A DNA stretch of 64,000 nucleotides from a virus. A program made the position numbers and the translations under genes. Position 1 is the first letter of the stretch; each line of letters begins with the position of its first letter. The notes beneath the pieces are model-generated. The model searched no databases. It worked only from the letters and a program-made list of their open reading frames with translations, and was not told the DNA's origin. Positions 10,514 to 63,508 of the stretch are shown here, piece by piece. The stretch is taken from IMG/VR virus record IMGVR_UViG_3300032307_000622, positions 32,001-96,000 of that record; one strand, written 5' to 3'.

Positions 10514-11149
10514 TTACACTGTGGTGGGGTATTTTTTAAAATACTTCTCTAGCTCTGCATCTTGCAGGATTTGCATATTTTGGTAATGAGAAGGTAGCAG
10601 GTATTCTGATCCATCTATTGACATCTGACAAACCAGGATGTCTAAATAATCATTTTCAGAAAAATTGGTTGGTGGTCTCCAATGCATTTGGTGAGATCCA
10701 GAAAAGACTAAAGCTTCATTAGATGCGAGGGTATCACATGTATCATATGCACATAGCTCCCAATCCAAAGTACTATCCAATTGAATAGATAAAGTAATAG
10801 ATGGCTTCTTTAGCTGATTGTCGCTATGTGGTCTTAGCTCTGGCTGATGTCCAGTTTTAGTTGTATATCTAGCAAAATGTACTTGTGCGGTCTTAAGAGA
10901 TAGTCCTGTAACATCTTCTGTAAAATCTCTTATTGTTAAAAGAAAGTTATTGTCAAAACCTTTAATATATGCAAAATATCCTAGCTCTGGAACATTTAGA
11001 TATTCTAGACCTTCTCTATTATCTGGCGGTAGATCAGGAGCTAGCTCCTCTGGGAAAGCATTCTTGACGCATTCATACACATAGGCATAATCCTCCTGAG
11101 ATAAAACATCCTTGACAACAAAAGGCTTAAATTCTGTTAAGTTCGTCAT
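10514..11149 (-). CDS. 2OG-Fe(II) oxygenase-family protein
   Basis: FARY...LRPHSD...HWRP (HxD...H triad). Confidence 0.75.
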   Translation of the reverse strand: MTNLTEFKPFVVKDVLSQEDYAYVYECVKNAFPEELAPDLPPDNREGLEYLNVPELGYFAYIKGFDNNFLLTIRDFTEDVTGLSLKTAQVHFARYTTKTGHQPELRPHSDNQLKKPSITLSIQLDSTLDWELCAYDTCDTLASNEALVFSGSHQMHWRPPTNFSENDYLDILVCQMSIDGSEYLLPSHYQNMQILQDAELEKYFKKYPTTV

Positions 11150-11765
11150 TTAGGCTTCTTTCCAGTAAGTGCTTATACTTCTCGATAAACTGTCCTGATA
11201 TCTTATCCATTTCGTCAAAGTAGCTATCCTCCAAGACGGTATCATCGTCATCTTCAATATATGTCTGCAAGATAATCACATCAAAGTAATCATCGTCTTT
11301 AAATTCTATGTCTGGTCTCCAGTGTACATCCTTAGATCCAGAGAAAAGCAATATCTGGTTCTTTTCTAGATTATATTTCTCGTCGTTCACATAGATATCC
11401 CAATCTAGTGTTGTATCTAGTTCTATAGTAGCTGTTAGGGATGGTCTCTTTACCGCCCTATCTACGTGCGGTCTTAAACGTGGACGATATCCAGAATCTC
11501 TTGTGTACCGTGCAAATAGGACACCTGGCAAAGCTACTGTGGCATGGAGGATATCTTCAAGCTTTTCTCTAATTGTTTCAACGACATCATCCTTAACTAC
11601 GTCAAAGTAAATAATAAAGCCGTTGTTGTCGATAACAGCAAAACCATCGTCATACTTGCCAAGATCATTTTTTAAGTTGTTTTCGATCTTTTCATGTACG
11701 GCCTCATATACCAAATCATAATGTTCTTTAGTTAAAAAATCTGAGGCTACAATAGTTTTTTCCAT
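11127..11765 (-). CDS. 2OG-Fe(II) oxygenase-family protein, paralog of 10514
   Basis: FARY...LRPHVD...HWRP; probable leaderless ATG at 11765. Confidence 0.75.
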   Translation of the reverse strand: MEKTIVASDFLTKEHYDLVYEAVHEKIENNLKNDLGKYDDGFAVIDNNGFIIYFDVVKDDVVETIREKLEDILHATVALPGVLFARYTRDSGYRPRLRPHVDRAVKRPSLTATIELDTTLDWDIYVNDEKYNLEKNQILLFSGSKDVHWRPDIEFKDDDYFDVIILQTYIEDDDDTVLEDSYFDEMDKISGQFIEKYKHLLERSLNDELNRI

Positions 11766-11787
11766 AGATATATGATACACTATAGTT

Positions 11788-11838
11788 ATGTGTAATGGCA
11801 ATTGTACTTGTGGCAAAGAGCAGCCACAGCCAAAGTAA
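11788..11838 (+). CDS. Possible 16-aa Cys-rich peptide MCNGNCTCGKEQPQPK
   Basis: TGaTACACT 6 nt before the ATG; fills the intergenic gap. Confidence 0.4.
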   Translation: MCNGNCTCGKEQPQPK

Positions 11839-12224: not shown

Positions 12225-12381
12225 CTATAAATGATACCACACATAGGCTACATGTTGCATATATGTTTATGCATATTGGGTAGATAGGGTGTATGGGATC
12301 TCTTATTCCGCCGAGCTACATCCGCCGAATTTAATTTCTATTTTTACGCCGAACTAAAAAATCAGTTATAATTGTTATATT

Positions 12382-12699
12382 ATGACCCCCATCGAAATAA
12401 CTAACATGATACTGGGAATTGTAATTTCCGTAGGAACCATAATCTCAATTGCCGCCCTGGGAATCAGATGGCTAGTCAAGCATTATTTTGATGAAATTAA
12501 AGCAGAGCTAAAACCTAATAGTGGATCAAGTATAAAAGATCAGGTTACTAGACTAGAAAAACAAATGGTAGAGTCTCAGGAACAGCGAAAAGAAGCTAAC
12601 AAAAAAATAGATCACATGTACGATCTGCTTATTGAATATATCGCAAAAAGCTCAGAGCCAAAAAACTCAGCAAGAAAAACTACAAAAAAATCAAGCTAA
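12382..12699 (+). CDS. Membrane protein with TM segment and coiled coil (possible holin or lysis accessory)
   Basis: N-terminal TM; ELKPNSGSSIKDQVTRLE motif. Confidence 0.65.
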   Translation: MTPIEITNMILGIVISVGTIISIAALGIRWLVKHYFDEIKAELKPNSGSSIKDQVTRLEKQMVESQEQRKEANKKIDHMYDLLIEYIAKSSEPKNSARKTTKKSS

Positions 12700-12897
12700 A
12701 AGCCGATTATTATATTATAATATAAAAACTAAATCGTAAATTTAATATTTAAGATATCTTATATATAGATATATATTATACTCGAATATCAGCTTTGTCA
12801 AGTCATTTTTTGATAACAATTGTGTAAATTTTTTGTTACATTTTGATAAACTGTGAAAACATACATATAATAAGAAACTTTATGTTATAATTTATAC

Positions 12898-12950
12898 AAC
12901 TAGTGTTCAGGGAAGTCTCTCATACCCACGTCCTTGAACACTAGTTTTAT
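12898..12950 (+). ncRNA. Candidate ~50-nt single-hairpin sRNA with loop AGUCUCUCAUACCCACG
   Basis: TGtTATAAT 6 nt upstream, 16-bp stem with a G-U pair on +, U-tract after. Confidence 0.65.
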
Positions 12951-12977
12951 TATTTTTACTGGTATAATTAGAGTATT

Positions 12978-13361
12978 ATGGCTAATTGTGGACCTCAAGT
13001 ATTCGGTGCTGATCCGATGAATCTTAAATGGCAAATTGTTAGGGGAGATACCTCTCCTCTGAGGGTAGAATTTTACGAAGATGACGAAGTAACCCCATAT
13101 GATACTACTGATTGGGAATTTGCTGCCTCTGCCTATGATTTTAAAGCAGATACCGTGGATGAGCTTGATATTGAAGTCGGAGATGGGTATGTAATTATTA
13201 CAGCACCCTCAGACATAACTCAGTACTGGGGCACTGGATATAGATCGTCCGTAGCAGAATTAGCCTTTGATCTCCAAGTCATAGTTGATGGAGAAACCGT
13301 CTGGACACCTATTGTTGGTACCATTTCGGTTATTGGAGACGTTACAGGAGGAAGTTTATAA
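12978..13361 (+). CDS. Virion/baseplate adaptor-like protein (BppU N-terminal-like)
   Basis: VRGDT...FDLQ...GTISVIGDVT; paralog of 18170 and 24837. Confidence 0.6.
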   Translation: MANCGPQVFGADPMNLKWQIVRGDTSPLRVEFYEDDEVTPYDTTDWEFAASAYDFKADTVDELDIEVGDGYVIITAPSDITQYWGTGYRSSVAELAFDLQVIVDGETVWTPIVGTISVIGDVTGGSL

Positions 13362-13552
13362 TGCCAACAGTTAAAATTGTGCCTTTCCCAGGCGGACCTG
13401 GCCCACGTGGCGAACAGGGACCAAGGGGGTACCAGGGAGATCCTGGGCCAACCTATACTCCAACAGGAGCTTCAGGAACTTTTGTTTCAAATGATAACAA
13501 AACGATAACAGTTGTTAATGGAATTATTACAGCAATCACAGAGGGAGATTAA
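13361..13552 (+). CDS. Small collagen-repeat protein
   Basis: GPGPRGEQGPRGYQGDPGP. Confidence 0.7.
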   Translation: MPTVKIVPFPGGPGPRGEQGPRGYQGDPGPTYTPTGASGTFVSNDNKTITVVNGIITAITEGD

Positions 13553-21461: not shown

Positions 21462-21529
21462 AAATATCATTTTTGTGATCAAGCGAACTTGTGATATAAT
21501 TTTTATGATATGAGAGGACACGCCTTAAA

Positions 21530-46929: not shown

Positions 46930-46982
46930 GGCCTCCGTGTGTTATAATTGATTGACCCAAAATGGTTATATGAGAGGAAAAA

Positions 46983-61989: not shown

Positions 61990-62436
61990 ATGGCTAAAAT
62001 TCCACTTCCCCAAAGAGGGCAACCAGTAGATCTTACATATTTGTACGAAATTGCAAATGCTGTTAACAACCTATCAACACAAATATCTCCATCTTCGTAT
62101 AAGTATGTCACAGTGGATACCCCTACTTCTGGAAAGCAAAATGTTAAGGCATCAGAGGCAAAAATTATTGGTGGGTATATTGAGGTAGCAAACAATAGTA
62201 CTGTTTCAGCCTCTAACGAAAAAGAGTTTTCGTATGCCATAACTGGTGGAGAATTTAAGTATGCACCAATAGTTACCGCTACCCCAGTTATGATAGGAAC
62301 TACTGATGCTGGAAAAAGTGCTAGCATAATTTTAAAAAATGTAACAACCTCAAAGGTTGAGGGTGTAGTAAAGTTTAACGTTTCTGGTGATGCCAAGGTA
62401 GGAATTAATTTAATTATCATTGGCATTCCAAACTAA
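61990..62436 (+). CDS. Minor tail protein
   Basis: ORF track; leaderless start. Confidence 0.6.
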   Translation: MAKIPLPQRGQPVDLTYLYEIANAVNNLSTQISPSSYKYVTVDTPTSGKQNVKASEAKIIGGYIEVANNSTVSASNEKEFSYAITGGEFKYAPIVTATPVMIGTTDAGKSASIILKNVTTSKVEGVVKFNVSGDAKVGINLIIIGIPN

Positions 62437-62446
62437 GGGAATCATC

Positions 62447-62992
62447 GTGCCCATTAATAAAAAAGGCAGCATTGAGCAAGAAGGGTACAACTCTGCACCA
62501 ATAATTCCTGGCAGCAAAAAAGTGTGGTTCTTAAATGGTGACCTTGTTAGAGTTCATCATCACAATAAATCAAATGGCATAATGTCTGTTTATAATATTA
62601 TTCAAGATAGAATTGAAAGTTGTTTAATTAGTGATTTTAAGAAAAATCGTGAAAGAGCTTTTACTGTTGGAGAAACGGCAACTCTTGTAAATAGACACAA
62701 AAAGTATATGCCCAGCCTAATGAAGCGTGGTATTATTCCACATCCCACAGGATCGCAAAAGGGCGGATCAACAGGCTGGCAGGTAAGAAGTTATTATTCA
62801 GAGTCGCAAGTTAGAGAAATTCGTGATATACTTGCCTCATATCATATGGGTAGGCCAAGAGGAGACAGGCTTATTACCAATGACATCACTCCATCCAAAC
62901 AAGAGTTGACAAGGCGTATGGGGGATGGTATACTAACGTATACAAGGACAGAAGACGGAAGATTTATTCCAATTTGGAGTGAATCAATATAG
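62447..62992 (+). CDS. Helix-turn-helix (MerR-like) DNA-binding protein
   Basis: FTVGETA.LVNR...RG.IP...R.YYSE; probable GTG start at 62447. Confidence 0.6.
   Translation: MPINKKGSIEQEGYNSAPIIPGSKKVWFLNGDLVRVHHHNKSNGIMSVYNIIQDRIESCLISDFKKNRERAFTVGETATLVNRHKKYMPSLMKRGIIPHPTGSQKGGSTGWQVRSYYSESQVREIRDILASYHMGRPRGDRLITNDITPSKQELTRRMGDGILTYTRTEDGRFIPIWSESI
62906..62934 (+). promoter_or_regulatory. Promoter TTGACA-N17-TATACT with extended -10, inside the HTH gene
   Basis: Read directly from sequence. Confidence 0.8.
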
Positions 62993-63005
62993 TTAGGAAA
63001 TGGGT

Positions 63006-63197
63006 ATGGAAGAGACTAAGGTCACTGTATCGCTAGGATATACACTTAATTTGGGTAATTTTCAATCACTAAGAATTGATATAGGCATTCAAGACTCCAA
63101 GAGAAATGGAGAAACAACCAACGATGCCTTTGAGCGTGTTTATAAATACGTTGAATCTAAGCTTTCAGAAAAAATTGCTGAGAACCAGGAAAGCTAA
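63006..63197 (+). CDS. Conserved small phage protein (GYTLNLGNFQSLRID)
   Basis: ORF track; start at 63006 or 63000. Confidence 0.75.
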   Translation: MEETKVTVSLGYTLNLGNFQSLRIDIGIQDSKRNGETTNDAFERVYKYVESKLSEKIAENQES

Positions 63198-63508
63198 TGG
63201 CAGTAGAACGCAAAGACCGAATGGCTTTGCTTTCTCGCTATAGCAAGCTGCATACAGCTAAGTATAAAGAAAAGCCATTATTAAACCTAAATGTTGAGCA
63301 GTGGTCAGCAGATGCTCTTATAGAGTCCTACGGAATAGCATTCTGCTATGATCTGCTAGAATACTATTTTGAAGTTGCTCAGTCTCCAACATGGAAATAT
63401 TTTGCTAACTATGCAGACAAACTAATTGAAGCAAGAGAAGATTACAAGAAAGATTTACAGGAAAGGGCTGAACGCCGTAAGGCAGCTAGGGTATGGTTAA
63501 GTGAATAA
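63197..63508 (+). CDS. Hypothetical protein upstream of the helicase
   Basis: ORF track; coupled at both ends. Confidence 0.75.
   Translation: MAVERKDRMALLSRYSKLHTAKYKEKPLLNLNVEQWSADALIESYGIAFCYDLLEYYFEVAQSPTWKYFANYADKLIEAREDYKKDLQERAERRKAARVWLSE

Follow-up and report, generated by a model that had tools for sequence, protein, structure and literature searches.

A conserved hairpin RNA of an uncultured lake phage and its covarying partner at the head of a helicase operon

An uncultured lake phage has, just before its array of structural genes, a short hairpin whose loop carries a stretch complementary to the translation start of a gene 50 kb away. Does this element act as an RNA on the distant gene, or does it serve the genes beside it? 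We analyzed a stretch of 64 kb (hereafter the window) of the 116-kb phage genome, for which a preliminary description, made from the letters and their open reading frames, had proposed a self-contained small RNA that turns down replication genes. A WhiB gene is present in the phage genome, which makes an actinobacterial host more likely, and the host is probably an actinobacterium; a psbA (Photo_RC) gene was not found in the phage genome. The features of the two sites are listed in Table 1.

Table 1. Positions, in the window, of the hairpin locus and of its predicted target
Feature	Position	Strand	Remarks
Extended -10 promoter box, TGTTATAAT	12883..12891	+	Putative function, from sequence and family conservation
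Hairpin body	12898..12946	+	Arms 12898-12913 and 12931-12946; loop 12914-12930
Loop seed, CAUACCC	12921..12927	+	Pairs with GGGUAUG of the target; wider conserved 15-mer at 12915-12929
T-rich tail, TTATTATTTTT	12947..12957	+	Likely 3' end or terminator tract, from sequence
Second extended -10 box, TGGTATAAT	12960..12968	+	Promoter-like site for the downstream gene array, from sequence
Downstream syntenic gene	12978..13361	+	127 aa; phrog_1084; anchor for finding relatives
Promoter-like site of the target	62906..62934	+	TTGACA (62906-62911), 17-nt spacer, TGgTATACT (62926-62934)
Target site on the mRNA	63001..63017	+	UGGGUAUG, GA bulge, AGAGACU; duplex with the loop; seed partner GGGTATG at 63002-63008
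Target gene	63006..63197	+	63 aa from the second ATG (65 aa from 63000); phrog_5189, E 1.6e-21
Overlapping cistron	63197-63508	+	103 aa; phrog_11101; ORF call
DnaB-like helicase ORF	from 63501, past the window end	+	phrog_19, E 8.7e-9; 406 aa in the whole genome

The hairpin is a conserved plus-strand RNA

The promoter box, stem, loop, and T-rich tail were all found where the preliminary description had placed them. The stem consists of 16 pairs, including one G-U, and closes a loop of 17 nt; the 66-nt stretch has a minimum free energy of -23.9 kcal/mol (z = -6.79), and none of 200 shuffles folds equally well. Among 56 distinct relatives, compensatory (two-sided) changes were seen at 13 of 13 stem pairs. 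Of the cells at these pairs, 97.1% are paired, a value reached by 0 of 500 shuffles, and slid controls gave 31 to 52%. The extended -10 box follows the pattern TGnTAnnnT, of which T, G, T, A, and T are invariant in 56/56 aligned family members; it lies 6 to 7 nt upstream of the stem, and the RNA is predicted to start where the stem begins, at about 12897-12898.

At most positions of the stem, G-U or U-G pairs are found among the relatives (about 85 cells), against only 2 A-C cells, which identifies the hairpin as a plus-strand RNA. The same asymmetry bears on a reading at the level of DNA, in which a cruciform or a single-strand hairpin would serve as replication origin, nick site, or packaging signal. 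Such an element would suit the surroundings, which are AT-rich, promoter-dense, and intergenic, and at which gene orientation and GC skew change. A symmetrical cruciform, however, is not expected to tolerate plus-strand G-T and hardly any A-C, as a plus-strand RNA is, and the reverse strand scored 17.8 to 26.5 bits with model R1, compared with 58 to 92 bits for the forward matches, with one exception; we consider a DNA element scarcely credible.

With the same model the window hairpin scored 80.4 bits, and no other credible copy was found in the window. Relatives were gathered through the neighboring phrog_1084 protein, hence without selection on the loop: at least 550 contigs encode this gene, 80 loci were sampled, and an R1 match lies directly upstream of the gene in 73 of them. 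Rfam gave no match at gathering score over the 64-kb window and, at E values up to 10, weak chance-level matches only, the best of which reached 19.4 bits against a threshold of 99. A scan for tRNA and tmRNA found none in the window, and a DNA search with positions 12300-13400 against 50,697 phage records returned no match. A search of main texts in the literature gave no description of the hairpin RNA, and among the papers listed for the loop letters all were unrelated by title (eukaryote and methods papers). We conclude that the hairpin is a conserved plus-strand RNA, clearly beyond chance, and that it belongs to a large RNA family absent from Rfam.

Does the hairpin then simply end or begin a transcript? 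A general promoter and terminator scan of the window was uninformative (10 promoter-like sites versus 9.5 expected) and includes neither the -10-only promoter nor the long-loop hairpin of this locus; stem and T-rich tail are present, but the scan tool makes no terminator call because of the 17-nt loop. The claim that the RNA is self-contained would suit the window hairpin with its T-rich tail but may not hold throughout the family: among 47 distinct hairpins, the stem is followed by at least 4 T in 26, by 3 in 6, and by fewer in 15, so that transcription may in some cases continue into the structural genes. Such read-through, together with the T-rich tail 3' of the window hairpin, would suit a cis-acting element heading the structural array, whether a terminator or attenuator, a 5' stabilizer, or a loop to which a protein of the phage or the host, for example an antiterminator, would bind, the distant complementarity being incidental. 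The position of the hairpin, between a small upstream plus-strand ORF and the long plus-strand array in the window and in relatives, fits as well, and a promoter placed directly before a strong hairpin recalls the late-promoter/terminator arrangement of lambda. A plain terminator nevertheless leaves the conserved loop unexplained, and the second -10 box, conserved at the same position in most relatives, makes read-through into the array unnecessary. Within the loop, TACCCAC is retained in 18 of 19 loop types (unbiased set) and in 42 of 47 distinct hairpins. The 5' part is variable, which argues against one fixed protein site. A protein site also predicts no stepwise change of loop and distant start, always to the complementary base, of the kind set out below, and a cis-acting element is decidedly unlikely.

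The loop could also be the same module as the PhotoRC-II motif (RF01717) of T4-like cyanophage psbA leaders (Weinberg et al. 2010, PMC2864571), acting through a shared factor, as a decoy or common binding site, and not on phage mRNA. The exact loop 15-mer is identical to the conserved linker plus first stem bases of PhotoRC-II, and the stretch is at least partly single-stranded; among the class-B loci, which came in 38 distinct contexts, 5 were tested and all scored 54.8 to 85.6 bits with RF01717. PhotoRC-II differs, however, in having two hairpins and a linker upstream of psbA, in its phage group, and in its probable host, and the window hairpin gave no RF01717 match even at E up to 10. The conserved parts differ too, the 3' TACCCAC being conserved here and the 5' CGUCUcUCAUAcC there, where the remainder is a covarying stem, and our phage encodes WhiB but no psbA. 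Any 15-mer recurs by chance in a large collection, as illustrated by about 8 unrelated singleton matches among the 118 listed. On the cyanobacterial side, the 15-mer was absent at up to 2 mismatches from 80 psbA loci, and 5 picocyanobacterial genomes held 12 matches versus 15 for a control. Action through such a shared factor is highly improbable. A reading on the side of a cyanobacterial host was rejected, nothing having been found in the psbA loci or the picocyanobacterial genomes. Presumed resemblances of the loop to the initiator-tRNA anticodon arm, to Rho-binding C-rich tracts, and to rRNA segments were considered and not used as evidence.

Complementarity to the gene preceding the helicase

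The loop had been described as pairing, over 15 bp with a 2-nt bulge, across the start of the first gene behind the 62906 promoter. RNAduplex returned the same duplex (8 bp, 2-nt bulge, 7 bp; -21.6 kcal/mol), which spans both ATGs (63000 and 63006) of the 63- to 65-aa ORF; the target leader is weakly structured (z = -1.31). The promoter letters were likewise found. They lie inside the 3' end of the ORF at 62420-62992 and recur in the relatives G001 and G002 and in type-2 genomes (defined below), a conservation that is ambiguous because it falls within coding sequence. The overlapping genes that were said to follow are also there, with ORFs from 63197 and 63501, the latter matching phrog_19. 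The target protein has no Pfam family, and in the Atlas it falls in unnamed viral clusters only, the nearest named cluster, at 0.75, being a lead only; we label the gene as one of replication because of its position before the helicase.

No other non-self site of the 116-kb genome, on either strand, pairs as well with the loop; the second best reaches -19.8 kcal/mol. The preliminary description had named the genome-wide rank as a check, but 10 of 20 shuffled loops found a genome-wide best site of -21.6 kcal/mol or better, and duplex energy was therefore rejected as evidence for the target. Relatives carry two forms of the pair, type 1 (CAUACCC/GGGUAUG) and type 2 (UAUACCC/GGGUAUA). Cognate and noncognate duplexes show little contrast (mean, -14.0 versus -13.0 kcal/mol), since the U variant still wobble-pairs with G.

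In a type-1 screen of 9 complete genomes, an exact complement of at least 7 nt lies at the start region of the target gene in 7, and this family ranks top among 527 for such complements; G015 also carries one, hidden from the screen by a mis-called start. With a shuffled 15-mer (1,000 trials), some family had sites in at least 7 genomes in 9.2% of trials and in at least 8 in 4.7%, so that the family-level test of seed conservation is borderline. The same test on 4 incomplete type-2 genomes was kept out of the evidence because of mis-called starts. In 9 of 13 genomes the target complement falls within the best 1 to 2% of candidate start sites. In G001 and G002 the site scores -14.5 kcal/mol and lies outside the top matches. 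What is conserved is only a seed of 7 to 10 nt (YAUACCC/GGGUAUR); the full 15-bp duplex is particular to the window genome. The 8-mer TATGAGAG, which had been noted in the leaders of genes 21530 and 46983, does occur there but is not conserved, the site being present in at most 2 of 9 genomes per family.

The seed covaries with the target start among relatives

Covariation of loop and target in relatives had been named as a check on the pairing, and for the first gene before the helicase it was found. Loop and target start region were paired in 31 related phage genomes. Where the loop carries CAUACCC (n = 20), the target reads GGGTATG in 18 and GGGTATA in none; where it carries UAUACCC (n = 10), the target reads GGGTATA in 7 and GGGTATG in none. 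One or the other site thus lies at the target start region in 25 of the 31 genomes and tracks the first seed base: the C/G and U/A states are perfectly associated, with 25 genomes concordant (18 + 7), none discordant, and 6 without a site. Among these 6, G027 keeps GGTATG, G029, G031, and G073 keep only GGGUA, and G012 and G030 retain no part of the target site, although in G030 the start region is able to pair with the 5' side of that genome's loop.

A tree was built from 700 nt adjoining the target and has 11 unresolved forks. On it, G062 (U/A) is sister to G076 (C/G) with support of 98/99, and independent contrasts number 2 on well-supported branches and 3 on all branches, every one concordant. 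We conclude that the switch of seed and target arose two or three times independently. When 2 to 5 random changes were placed on the tree, the pattern was reproduced in 0 of 50,000 trials per setting; a formal sign test gives p 0.5, the contrasts (2 to 3) being too few. Phage mosaicism could mean that the history of the hairpin differs from that of the target-flank tree. Some one-sided changes lengthen the helix, namely the loop UUUCAUACCC of G026 with GGGUAUGAAA, the target GGGUAUGAGA of G017, and the target GGGUAUAG of G043. GGGTATG is also retained where the ATG within it does not share the reading frame of the ORF, as in G001.

The RNA might still be a general riboregulator with a C-rich loop that acts mainly on mRNAs with G-rich ribosome-binding sites, either those of the host or many of the phage, the gene at 63006 being one of many or a minor one. 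The universally retained core of the loop is short and C-rich, the target is reduced to GGGUA in three of the genomes above, and complements of 7 to 10 nt lie at other starts, in a 224-aa family in 5 of 9 genomes and in a 67-aa family in 3 of 5; AATGGGTATGA is found in 3 of 3 type-2 genomes that have the gene concerned. C-rich small RNAs that act through their loops are known in Gram-positive bacteria without Hfq. It is nonetheless with the phage gene at 63006 that the loop covaries base by base, and the other candidate families are less conserved, and we think it unlikely that this gene is only one of many targets or a minor one. A general riboregulator would be compatible with antisense action on the gene at 63006.

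Proposed mode of action and relation to known systems

We propose that the hairpin is probably a trans-acting antisense RNA of about 55 to 60 nt that would keep translation from starting on the first cistron of the transcript leading to the DnaB-like helicase. Host RNA polymerase would start at the extended -10 promoter, at the base of the 16-bp hairpin, and the transcript would be ended by the hairpin and its T-rich tail. The apical loop would then display the pyrimidine-rich seed, CAUACCC in the window genome, for pairing with GGGUAUG, which lies on the same strand, 50 kb downstream, in the Shine-Dalgarno/start-codon region of that cistron; in the window genome this pairing could extend to 15 bp. 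With the start codon covered by the duplex, 30S binding would be blocked; we infer repression rather than activation from this arrangement. The helicase would be turned down too, since the next cistrons overlap, via translational coupling or mRNA decay. A more ambitious proposal also covers timing: this abundant lineage of lake phages would run much of its temporal program by minimal promoter-plus-hairpin RNAs, each masking with its loop the ribosome-binding sites of one block of genes, and the hairpin at 12898-12946 would shut down the replication genes once the structural array is active. In a bolder variant, the 12 to 15 nt shared with the cyanophage PhotoRC-II leader would be a mobile module for pairing or binding that unrelated phages of aquatic habitats pass among themselves. 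We regard this broader program as rather unlikely.

Several known regulators resemble the proposed RNA in part. T4 RegA is a protein translational repressor; the proposed shut-off of early or replication-gene translation at start regions is alike, but the effector here is proposed to be an RNA. The 6C RNA of actinobacteria and RsaE/RoxS of Firmicutes use a C-rich loop seed that pairs with G-rich ribosome-binding regions. They share with our RNA the C-rich seed in a hairpin loop, whereas the RNA described here has no Rfam match, is a single hairpin encoded by a phage, and has a seed that includes the start-codon complement. The C4 RNA of P1/P7 and the Sar RNA of P22 are described as antisense RNAs with which these phages cover the ribosome-binding site of their own ant mRNA (PMC12197685). 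They are likewise short phage RNAs (68 to 77 nt) that pair with the translation start of the phage's own gene and time its expression, and C4 is listed there as trans-acting (PMC12197685). Our RNA has no sequence or Rfam relation to them (no window match at gathering score); its target precedes a helicase gene and not an antirepressor gene, it is encoded 50 kb from that target, its seed lies in the apical loop of a single hairpin, and its host is probably an actinobacterium. A tie to replication is described for the trans-acting phage small RNAs VpdS of vibriophage VP882 and PreS of lambda (PMC12197685; bioRxiv 10.1101/2024.10.31.621285). These too are small (about 50 to 88 nt) and act in trans on replication-related expression, but they operate in Proteobacteria, PreS on the host dnaN, whereas the predicted target here is a phage gene. 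VpdS and PreS depend on Hfq, which, to our knowledge, is lacking in actinobacteria, the probable host group.

Nearly all known phage-encoded regulatory RNAs come from phages that infect Proteobacteria or staphylococci. The table of a 2025 review lists no regulatory RNA from actinobacterial phages, and the terms "actinobacteria" and "mycobacteriophage" do not occur in its main text (PMC12197685). The hairpin adds a structurally proven RNA family that is present in most sampled members (73 of 80) of a group of uncultured phages very common in fresh water. With a specific target that covaries with its loop, in the first gene of the helicase operon, it provides a concrete case in which control of phage replication genes by an RNA can be tested in hosts that lack Hfq. 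Reporter tests could use the natural C/G and U/A pairs directly as compensatory partners, and orthogonal seed/target pairs could serve as simple translational switches in actinobacteria.

A conserved hairpin RNA ahead of the structural genes

The hairpin, its -10 box and its T-rich tail were all found as the preliminary description had given them, as were the 15-bp match to the start of the replication genes, the promoter there, and the overlapping genes leading to the helicase. The 66-nt hairpin stretch folds with a free energy of -23.9 kcal/mol (z = -6.79), a stability reached by none of 200 shuffled sequences, and R1, a model of the hairpin family scored in bits, detects one copy only in the window. 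Tail-fibre, portal, protease, and capsid genes lie in the array 3' of it. Relatives share this arrangement, in which minus-strand genes are followed by a small plus-strand ORF, ∼200 nt of intergenic DNA holding the hairpin, and a long plus-strand array.

Features of the hairpin locus and of the proposed target region (window coordinates)
Feature	Position	Strand	Basis or context
-10 box TGTTATAAT	12883-12891	+	sequence
Stem, 16 bp including one G-U	12898-12913 with 12931-12946	+	begins six bases past the -10 box
Loop, 17 nt, AGTCTCTCATACCCACG	enclosed by the 12898-12946 stem	+	sequence
T-rich tail TTATTATTTTT	directly 3' of the stem	+	sequence
Second box TGGTATAAT	12960-12968	+	followed by the gene at 12978
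Near-consensus promoter-like site	62906-62934	+	sequence; 5' of the target
Overlapping ORF	63197	+	next cistron after the target
Overlapping ORF, matches DnaB-like helicase families	63501	+	follows the ORF at 63197

With the downstream protein as bait, the hairpin was found at the same place in 13 of 15 related viral contigs; the 13 stems are quite different and the loop is nearly identical. A search for the exact 15-nt loop motif (the 15-mer, 12915 to 12929) gave at least 118 stretches, and among the matches listed were at least 55 distinct sequences of the window's hairpin type. An alignment of 56 distinct sequences, where the 15-mer is invariant by construction of the search, was used to examine covariation. 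The five specified bases of TGnTAnnnT (T, G, T, A, T) never change, and each of the 13 stem pairs has substitutions in both arms; pairing holds in 97.1% of 724 cells, compared with 79.0 ± 0.9% in shuffles, none of which (0/500) reaches 97.1%, and sliding the partner by 1 to 3 columns as a control leaves 31 to 52% paired. G-U or U-G pairs are seen at the majority of stem positions and A-C accounts for only 2 cells, a pattern consistent with an RNA transcribed from the plus strand and not with a DNA cruciform. Two candidate loop-closing pairs, G-C and U-A, never vary in this alignment, and may close the loop further, exposing 9 to 11 bases that end in YAUACCC.

Because the loop-motif search biases the set, R1 was also applied to 80 loci found only via alignment of the neighboring protein, a scan in which at least 550 relatives were confirmed. 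A plus-strand match lies directly 5' of the gene in 73 of the 80 loci (72 at 58.8 to 92.3 bits, one at 38.1), against reverse-strand scores of 17.8 to 26.5 bits; upstream sequence is too short in two of the remaining seven, and the other five are without the hairpin. Of the 47 distinct hairpins in this set, 26 have loops with GTCTCTCATACCCAC and 14 have TGTCCTATACCCACC, with several rarer types making up the rest; TACCCAC is present in every type but one, and the 5' half of the loop is variable. The T-run 3' of the stem has at least four residues in 26 of the 47, three in 6, and fewer in 15. Rfam gave no match in the window at the gathering score, and nothing relevant at E values up to 10; the family is absent from Rfam.

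Several further features of these loci were observed. The very AT-rich intergenic DNA at 12700 to 12880 has several promoter-like sites on both strands, and coincides with the switch of gene orientation and GC skew. Most relatives (contigs L007 to L017 and L311 to L364) have a conserved TGTCCGTTTTGT-like element ∼35 to 50 nt 5' of the stem, at about position -35 of the small-RNA promoter; it is missing from the window and from L003, and lies on the opposite strand in relatives without the hairpin (L336, L340, and L355). This element may be a regulator site. On the 15-kb contig L028 (13032 to 13110, minus strand), the same loop, including the CC after it, is found on a stem of only 7 to 9 bp with no -10 box; it could be a copy that has diverged or moved.

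Probable host and a motif shared with PhotoRC-II

The full virus record, of which the window is bases 32001 to 96000, is 116,302 bp, and its two ends share a 123-bp repeat. The portal protein is 46 to 48% identical to portals of 120- to 134-kb Streptomyces phages. A WhiB-family protein is encoded outside the window (G000:C1:14684-14857; 48.9 bits, above the cut-off) and points to a host that is probably an actinobacterium. No photosystem reaction-centre protein is encoded anywhere in the phage genome. Two neighboring paralogous ORFs of 211 and 229 aa (10514 to 11816, minus strand) match a PHROG annotated as ferrochelatase (E values of 2.8e-5 and 1.7e-8).

The 15-mer has a second recurrent context, in at least 38 distinct sequences 5' of psbA in T4-like cyanophages. 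Rfam identified this leader as PhotoRC-II (RF01717) in all five loci tested (54.8 to 85.6 bits), where the 15-mer forms the conserved linker and the beginning of the second stem (for example, in contigs L048:1637-1733, L079:5867-5962, L023, L085, and L068). A TATAAAT box precedes it there, which we take to resemble a T4-type late promoter. The shared motif is probably due to chance or convergence, since the conserved sub-parts differ between the two families, the probable hosts differ, the window has no match to the PhotoRC-II model at E values up to 10, and the 15-mer is absent, allowing up to 2 mismatches, from the host psbA leaders of 80 cyanobacterial loci.

Predicted pairing of the loop with the start of the replication genes

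RNAduplex pairs the loop with 63001 to 63017 in two helices of 8 and 7 bp separated by a 2-nt bulge (-21.6 kcal/mol), covering both ATGs of a 63- to 65-aa ORF (phrog_5189, E value of 1.6e-21), for whose protein no recognized family was found. This is the best non-self site genome-wide on both strands (runner-up, -19.8 kcal/mol). Set against the possibility of many equally good random targets, raised in the preliminary description, the single-genome match did not hold up: in an identical scan, 10 of 20 shuffled loops had at least one site in the genome as strong as or stronger than -21.6 kcal/mol. By duplex energy the match in this genome alone is not more than chance, and the case for the target therefore depends on relatives.

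Nine complete genomes with the type 1 (CAUACCC) loop were screened for exact loop complements of at least 7 nt in start regions. The phrog_5189 start region was the top family, with a complement in 7 of 9 genomes (next families, 5 and 3); G015 also has the site, hidden from the automatic screen by a mis-called start. With shuffled 15-mers (n = 1,000), some family reaches at least 7 genomes in 9.2% and at least 8 in 4.7%; family-level target conservation on its own is borderline. Ranked by longest exact complement, the target falls in the top 1 to 2% of candidate start sites for 9 of the 13 genomes ranked; in G012, G013, G014, and G031 it does not stand out. In G001 and G002 the site gives only -14.5 kcal/mol, compared with genome-best matches of -19 to -23.6. 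GGGTATG persists even in genomes such as G001, where the true start lies 5 nt downstream and the ATG of the motif is not in frame; its conservation is therefore not that of a start codon.

In 31 genomes, the loop was then matched with the start region of the target. The loop-target covariation in relatives that the preliminary description had proposed as a check was borne out: a loop C goes with a target G, a loop U with a target A, and no genome is discordant.

Loop seed and target motif in 31 genomes
Loop	Genomes	Target GGGTATG	Target GGGTATA	Other target
CAUACCC	20	18	0	G012 GTTGTTATG; G027 AGGTATG
UAUACCC	10	0	7	G031 and G073 GGGGTAATG; G030 GGAGGAACAATG
Divergent (G029)	1	0	0	GGGGTAATG

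In G030, the changed 5' part of its own loop pairs with the target instead. One-sided changes, namely, a loop UUUCAUACCC opposite GGGUAUGAAA in G026 (10 bp) and targets GGGUAUGAGA opposite UCUCAUACCC in G017 (10 bp) and GGGUAUAG opposite CUAUACCC in G043 (8 bp), point in the same direction. Cognate duplexes gain on average only 1 kcal/mol over noncognate ones, a small margin that would follow from a C-G to U-A change passing via a tolerated U-G step.

The ∼700 nt on either side of the target, minus the start region, served to build a tree (30 rows, G051 left out) that is short and leaves 11 forks unresolved. On it, G062 (U/A) falls outside the main type 2 (UAUACCC) clade (98/98) and groups with G076 (C/G) as its sister (support of 98/99); 3 changes are required for each trait. 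Well-supported branches offer 2 independent contrasts, and all branches together 3, with the target concordant in every one; these are too few for significance (sign test, p = 0.5). Random placement of 2, 3, 4, or 5 changes on the tree, weighted by branch length (50,000 trials each; 25 of the 30 rows, with G012, G029, G030, G031, and G073 set aside as lacking the site) never reproduced the loop tip pattern, and came within one mismatch in 9 to 22 trials. The hairpin's history may differ from the target-flank tree owing to the mosaic nature of phage genomes.

The 8-mer TATGAGAG, which the preliminary description had placed in two other leaders, is indeed present there (21509 to 21516 and 46969 to 46976), complements the 5' half of the loop, and overlaps the Shine-Dalgarno-like GAGAGGA of genes 21530 and 46983. 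It is not conserved in relatives (the family of gene 21530 has a site in 2 genomes, and gene 46983 formed no cluster), so neither gene was counted as a target. Separately, TGGGTATG occurs at the start region of two further small-gene families in some genomes, which may be secondary targets: one in 3 of 5 genomes (G001 41913, G016 100735, and G011 83857; whole-genome coordinates, hairpin strand) and the other, a minus-strand gene with AATGGGTATGA, in 3 of 3 (G021, G043, and G045).

Predicted role of the hairpin RNA

We consider it rather likely that the hairpin RNA acts as an antisense RNA on the target start region. The earlier proposal of a regulatory sRNA is supported in its core, a genuine small RNA with a loop that covaries with its target; its reach has narrowed to a seed of 7 to 10 nt and one well-supported target. 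No description of this RNA was found in the literature. It resembles P1/P7 C4 and P22 Sar, classic phage antisense RNAs, in the proposed masking of a start region, and the loop-seed sRNAs of Hfq-less Gram-positive bacteria in the proposed mode of action, but belongs to none of their families. Actinobacterial hosts of this kind are not known to have Hfq. Table 1 of the review PMC12197685 lists phage sRNAs solely from phages of Proteobacteria, Staphylococcus, and cyanobacteria, and the words "actinobacteria" and "mycobacteriophage" occur 0 times in its main text.

The anatomy of the locus predicts an RNA of ∼55 to 60 nt, which would start at the stem base and end in the T-rich tail. Its loop seed would nucleate a duplex with GGGUAUG (-4 to +3 relative to the start codon), which would lengthen to 15 bp in this genome. 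Since folding of the target leader is weak (z = -1.31), pairing would hide an otherwise open start region, predicting repression rather than activation. Both of the following cistrons overlap the gene before them, so this effect could extend to the helicase. With the RNA gene at the head of the structural array, it is plausible that the hairpin RNA shuts down the replication block.
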